A stretch of DNA of 64,000 nucleotides, taken from assembly GCA_036002485.1 (NCBI GenBank), contig DASYTI010000019.1:11990-75989 (forward strand), given 5' to 3'. Made by a program: the position numbers and the translations under genes. Below the pieces are notes generated by a model. It did no database searches. It was not told where the DNA came from and was given only the letters and a program-made list of their open reading frames with translations. Shown one piece after another: positions 15,357 through 26,110 of this stretch. The stretch comes from Candidatus Methylomirabilota bacterium. Lineage in GTDB: Bacteria; Methylomirabilota; Methylomirabilia; Rokubacteriales; CSP1-6. The stretch's first letter is position 1, and each line of letters begins with the position of its first letter.

Positions 15357-15660
15357 GATGGCTCCTAGTCAACTAGCCGGGCGACCTCTTCCAGAGACCA
15401 CACGTGATCCGCCTTCCCGGCTTCCATGGCCGGGGTGACCCGCAGGGGAGCTTGGCAAGCTGTCAGGTCTCGGGGCCTCTCTGGAAGCTTCGCCACGGCC
15501 GGAGTATGCCACAGCTAGGCATGGAGCTTGCCGAGCCTCAGTTTCCAAACTGAGACACTACCCCCGAACCCGCACCGTATAGCTCGGTCATGGTCAGTGC
15601 TTGCGACATCCGAACGCATCTGCTTTACTCATGCGCAACGCGACCTCCGGGGAGGCCTCC

Positions 15661-16875
15661 ATGCGAGCACGACGGCTCTGGTTTTTGGCTACCGCAGCTC
15701 TTGCCCTTGCCCTCTGCGCGGGCGCGGCGACCGCCCAGTCGCCCATCAAGATCGGCGAGATCAACTCCTATAGCGGCATCGGCGCTCCGTTCACGGGGCC
15801 GTACCGCGCCGGCGTCGAGATGGCCGTGGAGGAGATCAATGCCAAGGGCGGCGTCCTCGGGCGCAAGCTCGAGGTCGTCTTCCGCGACGACAAGGGGCAG
15901 CCCGCGGAGGCGGTCAAGCATGCCCAGGAGCTCGTCGAGTCCGAGAAGGTGGCCCTGATCGCGGGCACCTTCCTCTCAAATGTGGGGCTTGCCGTCTCGG
16001 ACTGGGCCAAGCAGAACAAGACCATGTTCGTGGCCGCCGAGCCCCTGACGGAAGCGCTCACCTGGGCCAAGGGGCACGACTACGTCGTCCGCCTCCGCCC
16101 CAATACCTACGAGCAGGGGCGCATGCTCGCCGAGAAGGCGAGCAAGATGAAGTACGTGAAGTGGGCGACCATCGGCCCCAACTACGAGTACGGCAAGCGG
16201 GCCTGGGAGACCTTCCGTGACCGGCTCAAAGAGCTGAAGCCGGACGTGCAGGTGGTGGGCGAGCACTGGCCGACCCTCGGCAAGATCGAACCCGGTCCGC
16301 TCGTCACGGCGATCATGAGCCAGAATCCCGACGCCCTCTACGTCTCGCTCTTCGGCAGCGACTGGCTGGCCTTCGTGCGCGAGGCGCAGAAGCGGGGGCT
16401 CTTCCAGAAGACGTTCGTGGTGGGCATCCTGCTCGGCGAGCCAGAGTACATCGACCCCCTCAAGCTCGAGGCGCCCGAAGGCAATCTCGTGACCGGCTAC
16501 CCCTGGTACGACATCAAGAGCCCGGCGCACCAGGACTGGGTGACGCGCTACACCAAACGGGGCGACAAGCATCCGGTGCTGGGCTCGCTCATCGGCTACG
16601 TCACCTACGTCTCGATCGCGGAGGCGATCAAGAAGGCCGGCGGCACCGACACGGCCAAGCTCGTCCAGGCCTTCAAGGGCCTCAAGGTCGAGACTCCCAT
16701 CGGCCCCATCACCTTCCGGGCCTCGGACGGCCAGTCGACCATGGGCGCCTGGGTGGGCACCACCAAGCTCGATAGCCAGCGCGGCGTGGGGGTCATGGTC
16801 AATCACGAATACATTCCCGGCGAGAAGGTGCTGCCCTCCGACGACGAGGTGAGGAAGCTCCGCCCGGGCTCGTGA
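15661..16875 (+). CDS. Branched-chain amino acid / amide-type ABC transporter substrate-binding protein (LivK family)
   Basis: Signal peptide MRARRLWFLATAALALALCAGAATAQSP, then a Peripla_BP_6-like sequence (IKIGEINSYSGIGAPFTGPYRAGVEMAVEEINAKGGVLGRK). GGGGAGG RBS upstream of the ATG at 15661. Confidence 0.88.
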   Translation: MRARRLWFLATAALALALCAGAATAQSPIKIGEINSYSGIGAPFTGPYRAGVEMAVEEINAKGGVLGRKLEVVFRDDKGQPAEAVKHAQELVESEKVALIAGTFLSNVGLAVSDWAKQNKTMFVAAEPLTEALTWAKGHDYVVRLRPNTYEQGRMLAEKASKMKYVKWATIGPNYEYGKRAWETFRDRLKELKPDVQVVGEHWPTLGKIEPGPLVTAIMSQNPDALYVSLFGSDWLAFVREAQKRGLFQKTFVVGILLGEPEYIDPLKLEAPEGNLVTGYPWYDIKSPAHQDWVTRYTKRGDKHPVLGSLIGYVTYVSIAEAIKKAGGTDTAKLVQAFKGLKVETPIGPITFRASDGQSTMGAWVGTTKLDSQRGVGVMVNHEYIPGEKVLPSDDEVRKLRPGS

Positions 16876-16895
16876 GCTGAAGACCGCCCCCTCAT

Positions 16896-16945
16896 GATCT
16901 CAGCCCTCGCCTCATTCGAGGCGAGCCTCGGCTCGAAGTGCGGCC
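16896..16945 (-). repeat. Single copy of the same ~45-bp repeat family (inverted orientation)
   Basis: ctcagccctcgcctcattcgaggcgagcctcggctcgaa is the reverse complement of TTCGAGCCGAGG..GAGGCGAGGGCTGAG. Confidence 0.6.
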
Positions 16946-17001
16946 CTCTCCCCCGATTGTGGAGAGGATTTCTTGACTCCCTCTCCTCTCTGGGGAGAGG
17001 G
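16944..17001 (+). promoter_or_regulatory. Two stem-loops between livK and livHM; the first has a T-tract (partial terminator or attenuator candidate)
   Basis: The first stem-loop is ccctctc-ccccgattgt-ggagagg followed by atttctt. The second is ccctctcc-tctctgg-ggagaggg, directly before the RBS and GTG at 17023. Confidence 0.4.
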
Positions 17002-17022
17002 GCGGGGTGAGGGGAGCCGCCC

Positions 17023-18867
17023 GTGTCGCTTCTCCCGCTTCTCCTCGTCCAGTTGCTGAGCGGTCTCGCCAACGCGATGTTCCTCTTCCTCATCGCGTCT
17101 GGACTGTCGCTCATCTTCGGGGTCACCCGGATCGTCAACTTCGCCCACGGCTCGTTTTACATGCTGGCGGCCTATCTCACGTACTCGCTCACGGCGGCCC
17201 TGCCCTTAGGGCCCAACGCCTTTTACGCCGCCGCGCTGCTTGCCGCGCTTCTCGTCGCGGGGCTCGGCGGGCTCGTGGAGGCGCTGCTCCTTCGCCGCGT
17301 CTACCGCGCGCCCGAGCTCTACCAGCTCCTGCTGACCTTCGCGCTCGTCTTGATCGTGGCGGATGCCGTGCGCTATCTCTGGGGCGCCGACAACAAGACG
17401 GGGCCCGCCGCCCCAGGTCTGAGCGGCTCCGTGTCCATCGCCGGACAGCTCTTCCCGAGCTATGACCTCGCCGTCATCGTCTTCGGCCCCCTCGTCGCCC
17501 TCGGGCTCTGGGGCCTTTTCCATCGCACGCGCTGGGGTGTCCTGATCCGCGCCGCCACCCAGGACCGCGAGATGGTCGCGGCCCTCGGCGTGGATCAATC
17601 GCGCCTCTTCACGGGCGTCTTCATCCTCGGCTCCTTCCTGGCGGGACTCGCGGGGGCGCTCCAGGTGCCGCGGCTGGCCCTGACCACCGTGATGGACACC
17701 ACCGTCATCGTCGAGGCCTTCGTGGTGGTCGTCATCGGGGGCATGGGATCGGTGTGGGGGGCGCTGCTCGCCTCGCTCCTCATCGGCGTGCTCAACGCCT
17801 TCGGTGTTCTCGTGCTGCCCAAGATCTCCATCGTGCTCATCTTCGTCGTCATGGCCGTGGTGCTGATCGTGAGGCCCTGGGGTCTCCTGGGGCGGCCGGA
17901 GATCCAGCTGCGCGCGGCGGGGGGCGCCGTGGCCGAGGTGAGGCCGTCACGCGCCGGCCGATCATGGAACAAGGCATGGCTCGGGGCCGGAGTCCTGCTG
18001 CTCGCGGCGCTGCCGTGGGCGCTTCCGACCTTCTGGGCGTGGCTCGTCGTGGAGATCTTCGCCTTCGTGCTCTTCGCGGCGAGCCTCCACCTGCTCATGG
18101 GCCTGGGCGGCATGGTCTCGTTCGGGCATGCCGCGTATTTCGGGATCGGCGCCTACGCGGCCGCTCTCCTCCTCAAGCTCGCGAGCTGGCCCATGCCGCT
18201 GGCCTTTCTCGCGGCCCCCCTGGTGGCGGCGCTGGCCGCCGTCGTCTTCGGCTACTTCTGCGTCCGGCTCACGAGCATCTACTTCGCCATGCTCACCCTC
18301 GCGTTCGCCCAGATCGTCTACGCCGTCGTCCATCAGTGGGACGAGGTCACGGGGGGCGACAACGGCGTACTCTCCGTCTGGCCCCCCACATGGCTCGCCT
18401 CTCCCATGCGCTACTATTACTGGTCGCTGGCCGCGACCCTGGGGGGAGTGATCCTGCTCCGCGTGGTCGCCGGTTCGCCGTTCGGCCTCTCCCTGCGGGC
18501 GGTGCGCGACCATGCCCGGCGCGCCGAGGCCGTGGGCATCAATGTCCGGCTGCTGCAGTGGACGGCGTTCATCGTGGCGGGGTTCGTGGCCGGCCTCGGC
18601 GGCGCCGTCTTTGTCTTCCTCAAGGGAAGCGTCTTTCCCGTCTACACCGAGACGCCCATGTCGGTGCAGCCTCTCGTCATGGTCCTGCTGGGCGGGGTGG
18701 GCTCGCCCTCGGGTCCGCTGATCGGCGCTGCCGTGTACAAGCTCCTGGACACCGTGATCACCCGCTACACCGATTACTGGCAGTTCGTGCTGGGCGGCAT
18801 CCTCATCCTCCTGGTCCTGGCTTTTCCCCGCGGCATCGCCGGCGCGCTTCGCCCGAGGCGTCCATGA
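17023..18867 (+). CDS. Fused LivH-LivM type ABC transporter permease (two permease domains in one 614-aa protein)
   Basis: The N-terminal half resembles LivH (GLSLIFGVTRIVNFAHGSFYMLAAY). The C-terminal half resembles LivM (GLGGMVSFGHAAYFGIGAYAAALL). GTG start. Stop overlaps the livG start (ATGA). Confidence 0.8.
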   Translation: MSLLPLLLVQLLSGLANAMFLFLIASGLSLIFGVTRIVNFAHGSFYMLAAYLTYSLTAALPLGPNAFYAAALLAALLVAGLGGLVEALLLRRVYRAPELYQLLLTFALVLIVADAVRYLWGADNKTGPAAPGLSGSVSIAGQLFPSYDLAVIVFGPLVALGLWGLFHRTRWGVLIRAATQDREMVAALGVDQSRLFTGVFILGSFLAGLAGALQVPRLALTTVMDTTVIVEAFVVVVIGGMGSVWGALLASLLIGVLNAFGVLVLPKISIVLIFVVMAVVLIVRPWGLLGRPEIQLRAAGGAVAEVRPSRAGRSWNKAWLGAGVLLLAALPWALPTFWAWLVVEIFAFVLFAASLHLLMGLGGMVSFGHAAYFGIGAYAAALLLKLASWPMPLAFLAAPLVAALAAVVFGYFCVRLTSIYFAMLTLAFAQIVYAVVHQWDEVTGGDNGVLSVWPPTWLASPMRYYYWSLAATLGGVILLRVVAGSPFGLSLRAVRDHARRAEAVGINVRLLQWTAFIVAGFVAGLGGAVFVFLKGSVFPVYTETPMSVQPLVMVLLGGVGSPSGPLIGAAVYKLLDTVITRYTDYWQFVLGGILILLVLAFPRGIAGALRPRRP

Positions 18868-19631
18868 TGACGGACTCGCTGGCGACCGGGCCCGTCCTCG
18901 AGACGCGGGGGCTCTCGAAGGCCTTCGGCGGGGTCCAGGCGGTGGCCGCGGTGGACCTGGCGATGCCGCGCGGCGAGGTCCGGGCTCTCATCGGCCCGAA
19001 CGGCGCGGGCAAGACCACCTTTTTCAATATGCTGACGGGCCAGCTTCGGGCCGACGCGGGCGAGGTGCGCTTCAAGGGCGAGCTTCTCTCCGGCCTTCCC
19101 CCTCATGCGGTATGGCGCCGCGGCGTGAGCCGTACCTTCCAGATCACCGCGACCTTCTCGTCGCTGACCGCGCTCGAGAACATCCAGGTCGCCCTGTAGT
19201 CTCACCGTCACGAGACCTATGCGCTCCTGAGCCGGGCGGCCCGGCTCGAGGTGGGAGCGGCGCGGACGCTTCTGGCTCAGGTCGGGCTCGAGGGGCAGGC
19301 GGACAGGCCGGCGGGGGTGCTCGCCTACGGTGATCTCAAGAAGCTCGAGCTCGCCATGGCCCTGGCCAATGAGCCCGATGTGCTGCTGCTCGACGAGCCG
19401 ACAGCCGGCATGGCTCCGGCCGAGCGCGGCGCCCTGATGGCGCTCACCGAGCGAATCGCGCGCGCGCGCTCCCTCACCGTGCTCTTCACCGAGCACGACA
19501 TGGACGTGGTCTTCTCCGTGGCCGACCGTATCATGGTGCTGCACCAGGGTCGGGTCATCGCCGAAGGCAGCCCCGACGAGGTGAGGGCCGACCCGGAGGT
19601 CCAGCGCGTGTATCTGGGGGATAGCGAATGA
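18864..19631 (+). pseudogene. livG: LivG-type ABC ATPase interrupted by an in-frame TAG at 19197-19199
   Basis: The two track ORFs 18864..19199 (Walker A GPNGAGKTT, Q-loop) and 19251..19631 (signature LAYGDLKKLE, Walker B LLLDEPTAGM, H-loop) are in the same frame, with no other stop between them. The TAG sits where homologs usually have Gln or His after the ENI.VA motif. Confidence 0.75.
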
Positions 19632-19640
19632 GACGCGCCC

Positions 19641-20330
19641 GTGCTGACGCTTGACGGCGTCGAGGCGGCCTACGGACCTTCACGCGTGCTTCACGGCGTC
19701 TCTCTCGAGGCGCGCGAGGGCGAGGTGGTGTCGCTCCTCGGACGCAATGGCGCCGGCAAGTCCACCACGCTCAAGGCCACCATGGGCTTGGTGGATGTCA
19801 TCGGCGGCTCGGTGCGTCTCGACGGCCGAGAACTGAGGGGATTGCCGACCCACGAGATCGCCAGATTGGGTGTGGGCTGGGTGCCGGAAGACCGGCGCAT
19901 CTTCAGCGATCTCAGCGTGGAAGAGAATCTCCTGGTCGGGGCCCGGAGCGCGGGAGGGCAGAGCGTCGATCGCGTCTATGAGCAATTCCCCGCCCTCGGA
20001 CGGATGGCGGCGCGGCGAGGGGGAAGCCTCTCGGGCGGAGAGCAGCAGATGCTCACCGTCGCGCGCACCCTCATGGGCCATCCGCGCATCCTCCTCCTCG
20101 ACGAGCCGTCGGAGGGGCTGGCCCCCGTCATCGTCCAGGCCCTCGGCCAGCAGATCGCCGCGCTCAAGCGGGAGGGCTTGACCATCGTGCTCTCCGAGCA
20201 GAATCTCAAGTTCGCGGCCCGGCTGGCCGATCGGGCCTACATCATCGAGAAGGGCCAGATCCGGTGGGAAGGGCCCATGGCGCGGTTGATGGAAGACGAA
20301 GTCGTCCGCCGCGCGTACCTCACCGTTTAG
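19641..20330 (+). CDS. livF: LivF-type ABC transporter ATP-binding protein
   Basis: Walker A GRNGAGKST, signature LSGGEQQML, Walker B LLLDEPSEGL. GTG start. Confidence 0.88.
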   Translation: MLTLDGVEAAYGPSRVLHGVSLEAREGEVVSLLGRNGAGKSTTLKATMGLVDVIGGSVRLDGRELRGLPTHEIARLGVGWVPEDRRIFSDLSVEENLLVGARSAGGQSVDRVYEQFPALGRMAARRGGSLSGGEQQMLTVARTLMGHPRILLLDEPSEGLAPVIVQALGQQIAALKREGLTIVLSEQNLKFAARLADRAYIIEKGQIRWEGPMARLMEDEVVRRAYLTV

Positions 20331-20339
20331 GGAGCTCGC

Positions 20340-21515
20340 ATGAAGACGCTGATCAAGAATATCGGCGTGATCGTCTCCGGCGACATCGCGCGCCCGCTCC
20401 TCGAGGGCGACAGCATCGCCATCGCCGACGGCCGGATCGCCGCCGTGGGGAAGGGGCTCGAAGATCAGGCCGACACCGTCATCGACGCCAAGGGCAGCGC
20501 GGTGATCCCCGGGCTCATCGATTCGCACTGTCACCCCGTCTTCGGCGACTTCACCCCGCGTCAGCGAACCATGGACTTCATCGAGTCCGGGCTCAACGGC
20601 GGAATCACCACCATGATCTCGGCCGGCGAGGTGCATCTCCCGGGGCGACCCAAGGACATCGTGGGCCTCAAGGCCCTCGCCGTGGTGGCCGCCAAGGCCT
20701 ACGCCAATCTTCGGCCGGCCGGGGTCAAGGTCCACGGCGGGGCGCCCATTCTCGAGCTCGGCCTGGTCGAGGCGGACTTCGCCGAGATGGCCAAGCACGG
20801 CGTCAAGCTGGTCGGCGAGATCGGCCTCGGCTCGGTCAAGACCGGCAAGGACGCGGCGCCCATGGTCCGCTGGGCCAAGAAGCACGGCATGACCGTGACC
20901 ATTCACACGGGGGGGCCGTCCATCGCGGGCTCGAACCCCATCAGCGCCGAGGTCGTGCTCGAGGCGGATCCTCACGTCGTCGGTCATATCAATGGCGGCA
21001 CGACCTCCATGAGCGAGCGCGAGATCGACTCGCTGGTGGCGACAAACATGGCGCTTGAGATCGTCCACTGTGGCAATGGCAAGACGGCGCTGCACACGCT
21101 GGAGCGGGCCACCGAGGCCAAGGCGCTTCACCGCATCATCATCGGCAATGACGCCCCGTCGGGAACGGGCGTGGTGCCCCTGGGCATCGTCCGCGTGATC
21201 GCACATCTCGTCTCGCTGGGCGGGGTGAGCGCGGAGATCGCGATCTGCATGGCCACCGGGAATACGGCGCGCGTCTACAATCTGCCCGTCGGGGTCATCG
21301 CCACCGGCCGCGAGGCGGATCTCTGCATCGTGGACGCGCCCGTGGGATCGGTGGGCAAGACGGCCCTCGAGGCGCTCAAAGCCGGCGACCTCTTCGGCAT
21401 CTCGATGGCCCTCATCGACGGACAGATCAGGATAGGGCGCAGCCGTAATACGCCGCCGGCCGCCCGCGCCGCCGAGGTGATCAAAGGGCACGGCCCCTCG
21501 GGAGGAGGACACTAG
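20340..21515 (+). CDS. Enamidase-like amidohydrolase (metal-dependent amidohydrolase superfamily)
   Basis: The N-terminus MKTLIKNIGVIVSGDIARP...IAAVG and the C-terminal block CMATGNTARVYNL...GREADLCIVDAPVGSV closely recall enamidase (6-oxo-tetrahydronicotinate amidohydrolase) family proteins. Confidence 0.75.
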   Translation: MKTLIKNIGVIVSGDIARPLLEGDSIAIADGRIAAVGKGLEDQADTVIDAKGSAVIPGLIDSHCHPVFGDFTPRQRTMDFIESGLNGGITTMISAGEVHLPGRPKDIVGLKALAVVAAKAYANLRPAGVKVHGGAPILELGLVEADFAEMAKHGVKLVGEIGLGSVKTGKDAAPMVRWAKKHGMTVTIHTGGPSIAGSNPISAEVVLEADPHVVGHINGGTTSMSEREIDSLVATNMALEIVHCGNGKTALHTLERATEAKALHRIIIGNDAPSGTGVVPLGIVRVIAHLVSLGGVSAEIAICMATGNTARVYNLPVGVIATGREADLCIVDAPVGSVGKTALEALKAGDLFGISMALIDGQIRIGRSRNTPPAARAAEVIKGHGPSGGGH

Positions 21516-21516
21516 A

Positions 21517-21726
21517 CTTTCGAGCTGAGCCGCTGCCCCGCATTTCGAGTTGAGCGGTGGCCGATGGCCGCCGCGAGACGAGAGCTGAGTTGATTCGAGG
21601 TGAGTGGCGGCCAGCGGCCATCGCGAGACGAGGGCTGAGTGGAGCGCGCAGGCCGCAGTTCGAGCTGAAGGGCGAAGCCCTGAGGCGAGGGCTGAGTGGA
21701 TCAGCGGCGAGGCGAGTGCTGAGACA
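21517..21726 (+). repeat. Tandem array (about 3.5 units) of a ~45-50 bp intergenic repeat, consensus TTCGAG(C/T)TGAG...GCGAG(A/G)CGAGGGCTGAGTGG
   Basis: Units at roughly 21541-21591, 21592-21641, 21642-21698, and a partial unit at 21699-21722. Lies between the amidohydrolase stop and the PF06684 gene start. Confidence 0.75.
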
Positions 21727-21738
21727 AGGAGAAAGATT

Positions 21739-22308
21739 ATGCATATCCGGAAGCTGCTGACCGTGGTGGAGGAGATCTACGAGGACGGCGGGAAGAAGGC
21801 GGCCAGGCCCATCAAGAAGGTCGCGGCCATCGCGGTGATCGAGAACCCCTTCGCCGGACGCTTCGTGGAGGACCTGCAGGAGCTCGTCAAGACCGGCGAG
21901 GAGCTGGGCGATCTCCTCGGCCGCCGGGCCGTGGCCGCCCTCGGCGCGCCCGCCCATTCCTACGGCAAGGCCGCCATCGTCGGCGAGCAGGGCGAATACG
22001 AGCACGCCGCCGCCATCCTTCACCCTACCCTGGGCGCTCCCTTTCGCGCAGCGGTGGGCGGGGGCCAGGCCATCATCCCGTCGACGAAGAAACTTGGCGG
22101 GCCCGGCGCGACCATCGACGTGCCGCTGCACTACAAGGACGCGGCCTTCGTCCGGACTCATTTCGACGCGATGGAGGTGCGCCTGGGGGACGCTCCGCGC
22201 GCCAACGAGATTCTCGTCGCCCTCGTCGTCACGGATGGAGGCCGGCCTCACCCTCGCGTGGGAGGCCTGACCGTCGACGAGGCCAAGAAAGAGGACGGGT
22301 TGAGATGA
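21739..22308 (+). CDS. PF06684 (amino-acid-synthesis / DUF1185) family protein
   Basis: MHIRKLLTVVEEIYEDGGKKAARPIKKVAAIAVIENPFAG. GGAG RBS. The in-frame upstream part of the track ORF is a tandem repeat array, not protein. Confidence 0.65.
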   Translation: MHIRKLLTVVEEIYEDGGKKAARPIKKVAAIAVIENPFAGRFVEDLQELVKTGEELGDLLGRRAVAALGAPAHSYGKAAIVGEQGEYEHAAAILHPTLGAPFRAAVGGGQAIIPSTKKLGGPGATIDVPLHYKDAAFVRTHFDAMEVRLGDAPRANEILVALVVTDGGRPHPRVGGLTVDEAKKEDGLR

Positions 22309-23291
22309 AATTCGGACTCCGCATCCCGAGCTTCGCGCTCGGGCCCCAGACGACGACCCTGGCCGAGATGGGCGCCTATCTCCGGCGGGCCGAGGACCTG
22401 GGCTTCGATTCCGCGGTCAGCATCGATCACCTGCTGCAGACCCCGCCCGCCTATGCCTGCACCTGGCTCGAGCCCGTGGCGCTCCTCTCCGCGCTGGCGG
22501 GCGTGACGCGCACCATCAAGCTCGGCACCATGGTGCTGGTGCTGCCTTTGCGCAATCCCGCCTACTTCGCCAAGGAATGGGCGACCCTCGATCTCCTGTC
22601 GGGCGGCCGCAGCATCCTCGGGGTCGGGGTGGGCTGGCACGAGGAGGAGTTCGGGCTCATGGGCATCCCGCACAAGGAGCGGGGGCGCCGCATGGACGAG
22701 ATGCTGGAGCTCGTGACGGCGCTCTGGGCCGGCGACAACGTCACGTATGCCGGCAAGTACTACCAGGTCAAGAACCTGACCATCGATCCCAAGCCGGCCC
22801 AGAAGCCGCACCCGCCGATCTGGATCGGCGGCGGCAGTCAGCCCTTCGAGAAGGTGTACGGCCAGACCGTGACGAACATCGATCCCGTGCTCATGCGGAT
22901 CGCCAAATACGCCAAGACCTGGGTGCCTCACTCCTCCGCCACGGCCGACATGGTCAAGGACGACTGGGACAAAATCCAACGCTTCATGGTGGGGCTGGGC
23001 CGAAAGCCCGACGACATGACGAAGGTCTATTCGAATTTTGTGTACGTGCTGAAGAAGGGCGAGAAGCCCGAGGTGGCGGCGCCCCACTTCGAAGTCTACT
23101 CGGGCATGGACTTGCCCTACTGGCAGGAATACTACCTTCTGGGCGAGGCCGAGCCGGTGGCCGAGAGGATCCGCGCCAAGGTTGCCTCTCTGGGCGGCTG
23201 CGAGCACATCGTGCTCAACCCGCTCAACTGGGGGACAGAGCAGCTCGAGCTCCTGGCCGGCGAAGTCTTGCCGCGGGTCGCCAAGCCCTGA
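22305..23291 (+). CDS. LLM-class flavin-dependent oxidoreductase (luciferase-like monooxygenase family)
   Basis: 328 aa TIM-barrel LLM-like sequence (FDSAVSIDHL, GRSILGVGVGWHEEEF). Start overlaps the upstream stop (ATGA). Confidence 0.8.
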   Translation: MKFGLRIPSFALGPQTTTLAEMGAYLRRAEDLGFDSAVSIDHLLQTPPAYACTWLEPVALLSALAGVTRTIKLGTMVLVLPLRNPAYFAKEWATLDLLSGGRSILGVGVGWHEEEFGLMGIPHKERGRRMDEMLELVTALWAGDNVTYAGKYYQVKNLTIDPKPAQKPHPPIWIGGGSQPFEKVYGQTVTNIDPVLMRIAKYAKTWVPHSSATADMVKDDWDKIQRFMVGLGRKPDDMTKVYSNFVYVLKKGEKPEVAAPHFEVYSGMDLPYWQEYYLLGEAEPVAERIRAKVASLGGCEHIVLNPLNWGTEQLELLAGEVLPRVAKP

Positions 23292-23435
23292 CGGCTCAGG
23301 TCGGCGCGTGAGCTCGGCCACGGTGCCGCGCTGAGCACGGCCCCTCGCCTCACCGGCGCGCGCGTCAAGCGCGTCGAGGATCCGCGCTTCCTGACCGGGC
23401 GGGGCGCGTACCTCGACGACCTCCAGATCCCGGGA

Positions 23436-25640
23436 TTGCTTCACGCGGCCTTCGTGCGCAGCGCCCATGCGCATGCCGTGCTCCGCCACGCCGAGGTGGG
23501 TCTCGCCCGAGGGACGCCCGGGGTGGTTGCCGTTCTCACCGCGCATGATCTGGTGGAGTGGGTGAGCCCGCTCGCCCCGCGACTGGAAGGCGGAGGGTTC
23601 TGGCCTACCCGGTGCCCGGCTCTCGCGGTGGATCGGCTTCGCTTCGTCGGCGAGCCGATCGCGACGGTCTGCGCGGTAAGCCCGGGCCAGGCCGTGGACG
23701 CGGCCGAGCTCGTGGCAGTGGATTGCCAGCCCCTGCCCGCGGTTGTTGATGCAGGGTCGGCGCTCGCGGCGAACGCGCCCCTCGTCCATGAAAGCGTCCC
23801 TGGAAATATTCTGTTCCATCGCGACTATCGTCACGGCGACGTCGAGGGAGCTTTCGCGCGAGCGCACGTCGTGCTGGAAGAGCGATTCAGCCATGGACGC
23901 TGCTCGGCGGCGCCGCTCGAGCCCCGCGGCCTCATCGCCTCGTGGGCGGGCGAGCGGCTCACCGTCTGGACGGGCACCCAGGCGCCGCACATCTATCGCG
24001 CGGCCCTTGCTCGCGCGTTCGGCGTGCGTGAGGATCAGGTCCGGGTGATCGTGCCCGATACGGGTGGTGGCTTCGGCCAGAAGATGCACGTGCTCTCCGA
24101 GGATCTCGCCGTGGCTGCCCTCGCCTGGGTGACCGGGCGTCCCGTCAAGTGGATCGAGACACGCCGGGAGAACCTGGCCTGCGCCTCTCAGGCCCGTGAG
24201 GGGCGCGTGGACCTCGAGGCGGCCGCGGATGCGCGTGGCATGCTTCTGGCTCTGCGCGCCCGTGTCGTCTCTGACAACGGCGCATATCACGTCTATCCGC
24301 TGACCGCCGCTCTCGAGCCGCTCGGCATTGCCGGGATCATTCCCGGGCCCTACCGCACGCCGGCCTACGAGTGGGAAGCCATGGGCGTGGCGACCAACAA
24401 GCCGCCCCTGGGCGCCTACCGCGGCGTGGGGATGACCATGGGCGCCTTCGTGATGGAGCGCACCCTCGATCTTCTGGCGGAGCGGCTCCGCCTCGACCCG
24501 GCCGAGATCCGACGCCGCAACCTGGTCCCGCGCGACGCCTACCCCTTCAGGTCGGCGGCGGGCTTTCTCTATGACAGCGGTGACTACCCGAAGGCGCTCG
24601 AGATGGCTCTGGAGCTGGCCGACTACGAGGGCCTGAAGCGCGAGCGGGAACATGGACGCGCGCGCGGGCGTCTCCGCGGCGTGGGGATTTCCTGCTACAC
24701 GGAGTACACGAGCATGGGCTCGGCGACCTTTCGGAGCCGCGGCATGAGCGAGGTGCCCGGCCACGAGGCGGCGCGCGTCTCCATCGAGCGGGACGGCGCC
24801 GTGCATTGCCGCCTGACCATGCCGTCTCAGGGACAGGGACACGCCACCACGGTGGCCCAGATCGTGGCCGACGAGCTCGGCGTGCCGCTCGAGAGCGTGG
24901 TGGTCAGCCAGCCGGACACCGACACGACGCCGGCAGGCAGCGGCACCTTCGCGAGCCGAGGGGCGGTGGTCCAGCGGGGCGCGGCCGGCGCCGCGGCCGT
25001 CTCGCTCCGCCAGAAGGTGCTCGATCGGGCGGGAGCGCTCCTGGAAGCAAATCCCGCTGATCTCGAGCTTCGCCACGGTCGGGTGACCGTCCGAGGCGTG
25101 CCCGACCGCGGCGTGACGGTGGCCGAGGTCGCCGGCGCGGCCGGCGAGGGGACGCTCGCGGTGACGGAAGAGTTCGATCCGCCCGGACCGACGTTCTCGG
25201 GCGCCGTCCATGTCGCCTCCGTGGAGGTCGACGCCGAGACCGGGCGCGTCGTGCTCCACCGCTACATCGTCGTCGAGGATTGCGGCCCGGTCATCAATCC
25301 CGTCATCGTCGAGGGCCAGATTCACGGCGCGCTGGCCCAGGGAATCGGCGAGGCGCTGGGCGAGCGGCTCGTCTACGACGAGTCGGGGCAGCTCTTGACG
25401 GGCAGCTTGATGGACTACGCCTTGCCCACGGCGGCCGATCTTCCGCTCTTCACGCTGGGCCACCTGGAAACGCCCTCCCCCCTCACCCCCGGCGGCCACA
25501 AGGGCATGGGCGAGGGCGGCACCATCGGCGCTCCCGCCGCCATTGCCAACGCCGTGGCCGACGCCGTGCAACCGCTCGGCGTGCGTGTGATCTCACTGCC
25601 CATCCAGCCGGAGGTGCTGACCACGGGGGCGGACCGATGA
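23436..25640 (+). CDS. Xanthine dehydrogenase / CO dehydrogenase family molybdopterin-binding large subunit (CoxL/aldehyde oxidase-like). The true start is probably upstream, around 23331.
   Basis: Ald_Xan_dh_C and C2-like sequence throughout. The conserved family N-terminus ARVKRVEDPRFLTGRGAYLDDLQIPG is encoded in frame upstream of the first ATG/GTG/TTG (see findings). Confidence 0.8.
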   Translation: MLHAAFVRSAHAHAVLRHAEVGLARGTPGVVAVLTAHDLVEWVSPLAPRLEGGGFWPTRCPALAVDRLRFVGEPIATVCAVSPGQAVDAAELVAVDCQPLPAVVDAGSALAANAPLVHESVPGNILFHRDYRHGDVEGAFARAHVVLEERFSHGRCSAAPLEPRGLIASWAGERLTVWTGTQAPHIYRAALARAFGVREDQVRVIVPDTGGGFGQKMHVLSEDLAVAALAWVTGRPVKWIETRRENLACASQAREGRVDLEAAADARGMLLALRARVVSDNGAYHVYPLTAALEPLGIAGIIPGPYRTPAYEWEAMGVATNKPPLGAYRGVGMTMGAFVMERTLDLLAERLRLDPAEIRRRNLVPRDAYPFRSAAGFLYDSGDYPKALEMALELADYEGLKREREHGRARGRLRGVGISCYTEYTSMGSATFRSRGMSEVPGHEAARVSIERDGAVHCRLTMPSQGQGHATTVAQIVADELGVPLESVVVSQPDTDTTPAGSGTFASRGAVVQRGAAGAAAVSLRQKVLDRAGALLEANPADLELRHGRVTVRGVPDRGVTVAEVAGAAGEGTLAVTEEFDPPGPTFSGAVHVASVEVDAETGRVVLHRYIVVEDCGPVINPVIVEGQIHGALAQGIGEALGERLVYDESGQLLTGSLMDYALPTAADLPLFTLGHLETPSPLTPGGHKGMGEGGTIGAPAAIANAVADAVQPLGVRVISLPIQPEVLTTGADR

Positions 25641-26110
25641 GCGTCGAGATCGAGAGGAAGTTCCTCGTGACCTCCCTGCCGGAGGCGATGGATCGGTATC
25701 CCCATGAGCGCATCGTGCAGGGCTATGTCGTGCTGGGCGCGGACGGGGGCGAGGTGAGACTGAGAAGAAAAGGGCTGAAGCATTTCGAAGCGGTCAAGAT
25801 GGGTCGGGGGGAAATCCGGTCCGAGCTCGAGGTCGAGCTCACCGCGGCCCAGTTCGATACCTTGTGGGAGGCCACCGCCGGACGAAGAATCGAGAAGACG
25901 AGGTACGAGATCCGCCATGCCGGAGCGATCATGGAGCTCGACGTCTACCACGGGGAGCTGGCCGGCCTCGTCACGGCGGAGTGCGAGTTCGCGTCACCCG
26001 AGGAAAGTCGGCGCTTCGTTCCGCCGGACTGGCTCGGGAGGGAAGTCACGAACGACCCCGCCTACAAGAACCAGAGCCTCGCGGTTCGTGGACGGCCGCT
26101 CGAGACGTAG
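25637..26110 (+). CDS. CYTH-domain protein (CyaB/thiamine-triphosphatase-like)
   Basis: MSVEIERKFLV is a hallmark CYTH N-terminus. 157 aa. ATG overlaps the coxL-like stop (ATGA). Confidence 0.8.
   Translation: MSVEIERKFLVTSLPEAMDRYPHERIVQGYVVLGADGGEVRLRRKGLKHFEAVKMGRGEIRSELEVELTAAQFDTLWEATAGRRIEKTRYEIRHAGAIMELDVYHGELAGLVTAECEFASPEESRRFVPPDWLGREVTNDPAYKNQSLAVRGRPLET

Follow-up and report, generated by a model that had tools for sequence, protein, structure and literature searches.

A CTG codon as the probable start of an XDH/CoxL-family gene in Rokubacteria

CTG start codons, although rare, have been established experimentally for hda and yfjD of E. coli and for the plasmid protein RepA, and a conserved CTG start has been reported for rpsL in Deinococcus-Thermus (PMC3531124, PMC2830850). 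The papers on these genes describe the same symptom that is encountered here, namely, heterogeneous annotated N-termini (PMC3531124, PMC2830850). The gene studied here encodes a large subunit of the XDH/CoxL family and lies in a stretch of 64,000 nucleotides, called the window throughout, from a Candidatus Methylomirabilota bacterium of the Rokubacteriales (GCA_036002485.1, contig DASYTI010000019.1, positions 11,990 to 75,989 of the forward strand; GC content 66.8%). From the comparison with related loci, we consider it very probable that this gene starts at the CTG codon at 23331-23333 of the window, and not at the TTG at 23436.

Reading frame and domains of the XDH-family gene

The gene is preceded by a gene for a luciferase-like monooxygenase (LLM; 22305-23291, plus strand; PF00296, E=6.4e-54), which ends with the TGA at 23289-23291. 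Past this stop codon, the unchanged frame encodes RLRSARELGHGAALSTAPRLTGARVKRVEDPRFLTGRGAYLDDLQIPG and then reaches the TTG at 23436-23438, the first canonical in-frame start codon. ATG, GTG, and TTG are absent between TGA 23289 and TTG 23436, and the CTG at 23331 is the sole NTG codon in this region. The open reading frame (ORF) listing gives the ORF as 23436..25640, and the TTG is also used by public gene calls (P0001, 734 aa). The proposed coding sequence would extend from 23331 to 25640 on the plus strand, encode a protein of 769 aa, and include 35 conserved codons at 23331-23435 (LSTAPRLTGARVKRVEDPRFLTGRGAYLDDLQIPG) that are omitted by the gene callers.

The Pfam match to the hammerhead domain (PF01315) begins at residue 35 of the translation from 23292, that is, at nucleotide 23394 and 14 codons before the TTG. 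In total, the product contains the hammerhead, MoCoBD_1, and MoCoBD_2 domains (PF01315, 6.2e-20; PF02738, 1.8e-75; PF20256, 6.6e-83), as is typical of a molybdopterin-binding large subunit, and neither an Fe-S nor an FAD domain. The nearest solved structure is that of the quinoline 2-oxidoreductase subunit QorL (1t3q_B, E=1.6e-168), which aligned with residues 8-763 of the CTG-started protein, and the alignment with CoxL (8uem_A) begins at residue 10. The initial annotation, made from the sequence alone, had placed a conserved CoxL-family N-terminus upstream of any canonical start codon, the first being TTG 23436; this was confirmed by the translation, the PF01315 match, and the QorL and CoxL alignments.

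The GGGFG and GMGE motifs of the XDH/CoxL family, the latter with the catalytic glutamate, serve in binding of the molybdenum cofactor and catalysis. The product contains the motifs DTGGGFGQKMH and HKGMGEGGTIGAPAA, which were matched to the same motifs in the QorL alignment. Form I aerobic CO dehydrogenase CoxL is defined by the loop AYxCSFR with its copper-binding cysteine. This loop was not found in the window protein, which has GAYRGVGMT where CoxL 8uem_A has AYACSFR. Because AYRGVG replaces AYACSFR, the label "CO dehydrogenase" that JGI gives to homologs is a family-level name only.

Start regions of related loci

Related DNA was compared for 80 genome loci, 80 metagenome loci, and four loci fetched by exact protein, and each of these 164 loci was anchored on the invariant KRxEDP motif for alignment of the start regions. 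In the subgroup to which the window belongs (L-S-x-A-P-R-L-T-G), CTG followed by AGC was found in 20 out of 20 unique sequences; other conserved leucine sites in these 20 sequences vary among three to four codons (CTG/CTC/CTA/CTT). Amino-acid conservation in the alignment of this window-type subgroup sets in exactly at the CTG, and upstream of it neither the residues nor the length are conserved. The initial annotation had listed a non-canonical start at CTG 23331 as one candidate explanation, and the comparison of the 164 loci strongly supports it.

Several loci carry a canonical start codon at exactly this site. In L163, whose protein is 85% identical, TAG ATC GTG AGC CTG GCT CCC is found where the window has GCG CTG AGC ACG GCC CCT. 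An in-frame TAG lies two codons upstream of this GTG, which is thus the only possible start in L163, and it is aligned exactly with the window CTG. Likewise, GTG AGC GCx CCx of six loci (L010, L011, L035, L103, L113, and L116) aligns with CTG AGC GCC CCG of L013 and L015, and the ATG, GTG, or TTG before (I)RY-x-G in L008, L020, L132, L137, and L138 aligns with a CTG in L027, L128, L135, L139, L140, L142, and L144-L146. In-frame stop codons also delimit the start in loci with CTG: a TAG is found two codons before the CTG in L006, L007, L009, L104, L107, and L121, and a TGA four codons before it in L022. More than 45 codons of L009 are devoid of a canonical start codon.

Quantification over all loci gave 124 unique start regions, 34 of which lack any canonical codon between the in-frame stop and the conserved arginine. 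When the 16 codons before this arginine were considered, 49 regions contained only CTG, 72 a canonical codon, and three another codon. All 34 outgroup homologs, mostly actinobacterial (Acidimicrobiia), were canonical, and in the Rokubacteria clade 49 of about 89 unique start regions (about 55%) were CTG-only. A neighbour-joining tree requires a minimum of 15 switches from CTG to a canonical codon or back. By these counts, CTG appears to be the commonest state at the start site in the Rokubacteria clade, alternating repeatedly with GTG, ATG, and TTG.

It was also considered that a sequencing or assembly error had destroyed a canonical start, either by changing GTG or ATG to CTG or by an indel that shifted the GTG at 23323. 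GTG codons are indeed present at 23308 and 23323 in the +1 frame, a one-base insertion would bring the latter into frame, and in L002 a GTG replaces the GCG of the window one codon upstream of the CTG. However, L162, which stems from a separate JGI sample and assembly, is 99.86% identical over 3674 nt and base for base the same across 23250-23450. CTG AGC is found in all 20 unique window-type sequences, that is, also in the 19 others, which come from many assemblies, and an aligned CTG start is present in L009, L016, and L022 on contigs of 0.4-2.75 Mb. An error in the window, which the initial annotation had proposed as one possibility, has next to no probability in the light of these data.

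The position at which coding begins was approached by a comparison of substitutions between the window and L001, L002, L082, and L096. In the 13 spacer codons between the TGA and the CTG, two, four to six, and three differences were counted at codon positions 1, 2, and 3, respectively; five to seven changes were non-synonymous and one to two synonymous, and a third-position bias was absent. For the 35 codons from the CTG to the TTG, the differences by codon position were, for example, 3, 3, and 12, with 11 synonymous and five non-synonymous changes (compared with L002). The next 100 codons, which are undisputed coding sequence, showed the same pattern as this block, with 8, 11, and 33 differences. 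These patterns indicate that the 39-nt spacer (23292-23330) evolves as non-coding DNA and that coding-type evolution starts at the CTG. In the alignment and blastn comparisons, 23292-23311 (CGGCTCAGGTCGGCGCGTGA) is missing from L081 (94% nucleotide identity) and from most window-type relatives, which have a spacer of 19 nt.

The same data bear on read-through or recoding of TGA 23289, which would yield an LLM-XDH fusion with the junction AKP-x-RLRSARELGHGAA. An LLM stop codon in frame with the downstream gene is confined to the window and the subgroup closest to it (L001, L002, L082, L096, and L162), where one TGA and 13 sense codons separate the two genes. In L081, however, which lacks 20 nt of the spacer, only 19 nt lie between the LLM stop and the CTG, and the two genes are in different frames. 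Most relatives likewise show a spacer of 19 nt, a TGAGATG or TGAGTTG junction, or an NTGA overlap in another frame. The non-coding substitution in the spacer codons likewise argues against a fusion. In addition, the junction contains no Rfam element, and its RNA (101 nt) folds no better than shuffled sequences (z=+1.18). A fusion protein, already rated as less likely in the initial annotation, is thus hardly credible. The shared frame with the LLM gene that had been noted there is real for the window, but it is incidental, since L081 and most relatives are out of frame or overlapping. No Rfam family reached the threshold anywhere in the window, and neither a promoter-like site nor a plus-strand terminator-like site was found between the LLM gene and the XDH-family gene.

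The annotated start at TTG 23436 would result in a protein of 734 aa, and the similarity upstream would be a relic. In its favour, the TTG is the first canonical codon and the start of P0001, and the annotations of many relatives begin at similar internal codons. We nevertheless regard this start as very improbable. Purifying selection acts at the protein level on the 35 codons upstream of the TTG, as it does on the remainder of the gene, and with a start at the TTG the protein would lose the family motif VKRVEDPRFLTGRG and 14 positions at the beginning of PF01315, residues that align with the QorL and CoxL structures. The TTG is not conserved as a start, since the aligned codon is CTG in 13, CTC in two, and GTG in one of the 20 window-type sequences, and the internal "starts" called in relatives are scattered over at least ten positions.

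This scatter is apparent in the protein databases. The closest database proteins are from Methylomirabilota/Rokubacteria, and the annotated start lies past the conserved N-terminus in 35 of the closest 40 and in roughly half of the top 120. The called starts fall on at least ten different codons (MPGLLHAAF, VRSVHAHA, MTGRGAYLDD, MEDPRLL, and others), and APRLTG...KRVEDP is included in only five of the closest 40 proteins. The DNA upstream of such shortened entries encodes the conserved N-terminus, as exemplified by P0018 of L161, and the downstream "starts" therefore appear to be annotation artefacts. The initial annotation had asked for an alignment of orthologs, with a beginning at LLHAAF as evidence against the upstream similarity. 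MPGLLHAAF or VRSVHAHA is indeed the beginning of many database orthologs, but their DNA encodes the conserved N-terminus upstream. Annotated ortholog proteins alone would have led to a wrong dismissal of the CTG start, which underscores that start-codon questions need a check of the DNA. If the CTG start is accepted, the gene model should be changed from 23436-25640 to 23331-25640 (769 aa), and a similar correction would apply widely among the relatives. The shortened entries distort alignments, profile models, and structure predictions for the Rokubacteria clade.

Proposed initiation at the CTG and genomic context

In the mechanism that we propose, the 30S subunit would bind the weak Shine-Dalgarno (SD)-like sequence GGTG (23322-23325), which is located 5 nt upstream of the CTG, and the initiator fMet-tRNA would pair with CUG in the same way as with GUG and UUG, with a mismatch at the first codon position. 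Translation would then yield the 769-aa protein beginning (M)STAPRLTGARVKRVEDPRF. The 39 nt between the LLM stop codon and the CTG would be an untranslated spacer, and the frame shared with the LLM gene would be a coincidence. CUG initiation would be a long-standing, gene-specific trait of the Rokubacteria/Methylomirabilota orthologs, and weak or tunable translation of the last operon gene relative to its neighbours would be a plausible consequence.

SD-like sequences of the relatives are GAGGTG, GGAG, or GAGGGG, 4-8 nt upstream of the start. The mean SD duplex energy was -6.3 kcal/mol for 51 CTG starts and -3.5 kcal/mol for 922 internal in-frame CTG codons (Mann-Whitney p=1e-13, ignoring shared ancestry). 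Several points weigh against initiation at the CTG. The window-type SD consists of GGTG only and is weak, with a duplex energy of -5.3 kcal/mol under the assumption of a canonical anti-SD, and the duplexes of some relatives are weaker still (-2.2 to -3.8 kcal/mol). The anti-SD of the organism was assumed and not read, and in the SD statistics, which also ignore shared ancestry, each locus was represented by its best candidate CTG out of a maximum of two. Furthermore, CUG is a poor initiator in E. coli, and the output could be low. Lastly, at the aligned start position of two loci of a distant subgroup, L134 and L141, CTA and GTA are found, since the LLM gene of these loci ends with TAA; the codon that follows, ATC or ATT, is invariant throughout this subgroup. 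In these two loci AUC or AUU, or another near-cognate codon, may be the initiator.

The second codon, AGC for serine, is as invariant as the CTG in the window-type subgroup (20 of 20, with no AGT or TCN), so that the hexamer CTGAGC (23331-23336) is fixed. This fixation could reflect an effect of the second codon on initiation or the TGA that is embedded in the hexamer. The embedded TGA (23332-23334) also terminates a mini-ORF, GTG 23323 CCG CGC TGA, and ribosomes that terminate there might restart at the overlapping CTG (CTGA). Three observations are in line with such a termination-reinitiation: 10 members of the set of 20 unique window-type sequences contain the motif GGTGCGNCGCTGA; in the distant "xIRYTG" subgroup, the start codon forms a CTGA, TTGA, or GTGA with the LLM stop codon; and four-nucleotide overlaps are the classic arrangement for coupling (PMC10666635). 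The other 10 window-type sequences (GGAGCCCGCGC, GCGAGCCGGCCG, ACGGGTCGTTCC), however, have no GTG in the frame of the mini-ORF and yet retain the CTG, and a simpler reading of GGTG is that it represents one half of the SD consensus GGAGGTG. We consider feeding by the mini-ORF very improbable.

Another three-codon mini-ORF, the conserved GTG AGG GGC TAG, was seen just upstream of CTC CTG in L006, L007, L009, L104, L107, and L121, where it ends two codons before the CTG. In L012 the TAG is replaced by CAG, and in L022 one nucleotide is inserted. The GAGGGG in these loci probably serves as the SD sequence.

Further candidates for the start were rejected. A frameshift from GTG 23308 or 23323, in the +1 frame that ends at TGA 23332, is not compatible with the half of the window-type relatives that lack a GTG there. 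The GTG that many relatives have for the valine of "KR-V-EDP" is used as start in NCBI and JGI calls; the window has GTC and L009 CTG at this codon, and conservation at the protein level extends upstream of it. The AGG at 23298 sits in the segment that is deleted in L081, and the ACG at 23337 is a variable codon (GTC/CTG/CTC/ACG/ATC/GTT). The near-cognate codons ATT, ATC, and ATA were not found in the window spacer.

The XDH-family gene is the last gene of an operon that is conserved between the window (15601-25640) and L161 (2550-12253). The order of the operon is a Peripla_BP_6 binding protein, a BPD_transp_2 permease, two ABC ATPases, an amidohydrolase, AA_synth (PF06684), LLM, and the XDH-family large subunit. 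In the clade, the LLM gene is directly upstream of the large-subunit gene and occupies the place that a CoxS-like gene has in distant homologs. In a motif scan for CoxS (Fer2_2-type), 33 more remote homologs, most of them actinobacterial, had such a gene immediately upstream, and the motif was absent from all Rokubacteria-clade loci within flanks of 2.5-10 kb. Neither a CoxS (Fer2_2) nor a CoxM motif was found in the 64-kb window, where the sole FAD-motif match lies inside an ABC ATPase gene and was taken as spurious. In the 10-kb flanks on either side in L161, no Pfam family of CoxS or CoxM was found. The description of the CoxL homolog as an orphan in the initial annotation thus holds for the window and for all Rokubacteria-clade loci in the 2.5-10 kb flanks, and genes for partner subunits, if there are any, would have to lie in another part of the genome.

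The neighbouring genes of the same loci were inspected for their start codons. Among 79 tabulated unique sequences, the LLM gene starts with ATG in 60 and GTG in five cases and never with CTG; several of the cases with ATC or ATA have an ATG a few codons upstream. AA_synth starts with ATG (47) or GTG (7), and the amidohydrolase gene with ATG (17), TTG (9), or GTG (2). Reliance on a CTG start was found for none of LLM, AA_synth, the amidohydrolase, and the second ABC ATPase. Among the 45 coding-like ORFs screened in the window, only the XDH-family ORF combined a sizeable pre-start stretch (48 codons) with a coding-type GC content at third codon positions (0.90), with one exception, the second half of a TAG-split ATPase gene (19200-19631). 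Of 291 coding-like ORFs that were screened in the Rokubacteria loci, 13 were flagged; 11 of them were the XDH-family gene, and two were spurious-looking or canonical. No second gene family with the same signature was found among the four neighbour genes, the 45 ORFs of the window, and the 291 ORFs, in screens that were crude and covered a small sample. As far as this small sample shows, the CTG start appears to be a property of the XDH-family gene and not of the genome.

The split ATPase gene, LivG-like and of the branched-chain type, lies within 18864-19631 and is interrupted by the TAG at 19197-19199, with VAL*SHR in the window compared to VALFSHQ in L161. The Pfam ABC_tran match covers positions 3-79 before the TAG and 85-137 after it. 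This TAG could be a nonsense mutation, the mark of a pseudogene, or a base error. As this gene belongs to the same operon and its ortholog in L161 has a phenylalanine at this position, the XDH-family gene or the whole operon might be decaying in the strain, and the missing canonical start would then be part of a loss of function. Yet the XDH-family ORF is intact over 769 codons, including the motifs GGGFGQK, AYRGVG, and GMGEGG, its divergence from the relatives is mainly synonymous, and CTG is the normal state in the clade and not a lesion private to the strain. Decay is, accordingly, an extremely improbable explanation.

Three further observations concern the neighbouring genes. The longest ORF of AA_synth (21604-22308) starts with GTG 21604, but the true start is probably ATG 21739: the Pfam match sets in only at residue 48, and M(H/K)IRKL is the aligned beginning of the orthologs. 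The start of an ORF of 157 aa (25637-26110) without a Pfam match overlaps the stop codon of the XDH-family gene; the gene calls for L162 and L163 also include a gene here, whereas SDR or TauD genes take its place in L161 and L164. The amidohydrolase gene of L022 has an ATT, after GGAGGAGTC, at the site where other loci have an ATG, TTG, or GTG start, and the operon of this one metagenome-assembled genome may thus contain a second non-canonical start.

It is possible, although rather unlikely in our view, that the CUG start is actively maintained to set expression, either at a low level or at one that is sensitive to initiation factor 3 (IF3) or growth state in comparison with the operon neighbours; in a weaker variant of this idea, Rokubacteria would tolerate CUG starts more than model bacteria do. 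If the start codon sets expression, the at least 15 switches between CTG, GTG, ATG, and TTG would represent a lineage-by-lineage retuning of the expression level. If the weaker variant is true, more CUG-started genes would be hidden by gene callers that allow only ATG, GTG, and TTG. One homologous site with CUG, GUG, AUG, or UUG in similar surroundings constitutes a natural series of start codons, which could be used to study start-codon identity versus SD strength versus stop-start spacing outside of model organisms.

Comparison with known systems

A literature search on start-codon usage in Rokubacteria yielded no relevant report. With its three domains, the N-terminal RxEDxRxLTGRGxY, and the GMGE loop, the protein resembles QorL (1t3q_B) and the CoxL-like, non-form-I subunits of the XDH family. 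In contrast to these systems, no 2Fe-2S or FAD subunit gene is adjacent, and the XDH-family gene closes an operon with ABC transporter, amidohydrolase, AA_synth, and LLM genes.

The distant orthologs, in which the LLM stop codon overlaps the start as CTGA, TTGA, or GTGA, resemble ATGA-type translational coupling (PMC6728339, PMC10666635). The LLM gene itself begins at such an ATGA overlap, formed by its ATG and the AA_synth stop codon. Termination-reinitiation from the LLM gene is plausible where stop and start overlap, as in the CTGA subgroup. In contrast to four-nucleotide overlaps, the window spacer has 39 nt, and reinitiation across it is unlikely, because in the E. coli and Haloferax gene pairs that were tested a distance of about 20 nt sufficed to nearly abolish coupling (PMC10666635). 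By this analogy, coupling is unlikely to explain the use of CTG in the window.

The XDH-family gene shares with infC, which encodes IF3 and starts with AUU or AUA, and with pcnB (ATT) that a weak non-canonical start is conserved in one gene, while the neighbours are canonical. The weak codon of infC is the basis of a demonstrated autoregulatory loop, whereas a regulatory role of the start codon in the XDH-family gene would be hypothetical.

Close parallels are hda, yfjD, RepA, and rpsL. As in these genes, the CTG of the XDH-family gene is placed at the N-terminus by comparison, and gene callers give heterogeneous, shortened N-termini; as in rpsL of Deinococcus-Thermus, the CTG is conserved across related genomes. 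Unlike these four, the gene encodes a subunit of an accessory catabolic enzyme and not a core replication or translation protein, and its CTG start is a prediction from sequence comparison. A further difference is that the site is not fixed, but has switched between CTG and GTG, ATG, or TTG at least 15 times. In summary, initiation at CTG is a mechanism that is already known, to which the XDH-family gene of Rokubacteria appears to add a new case, one for which the comparative support is unusually good.

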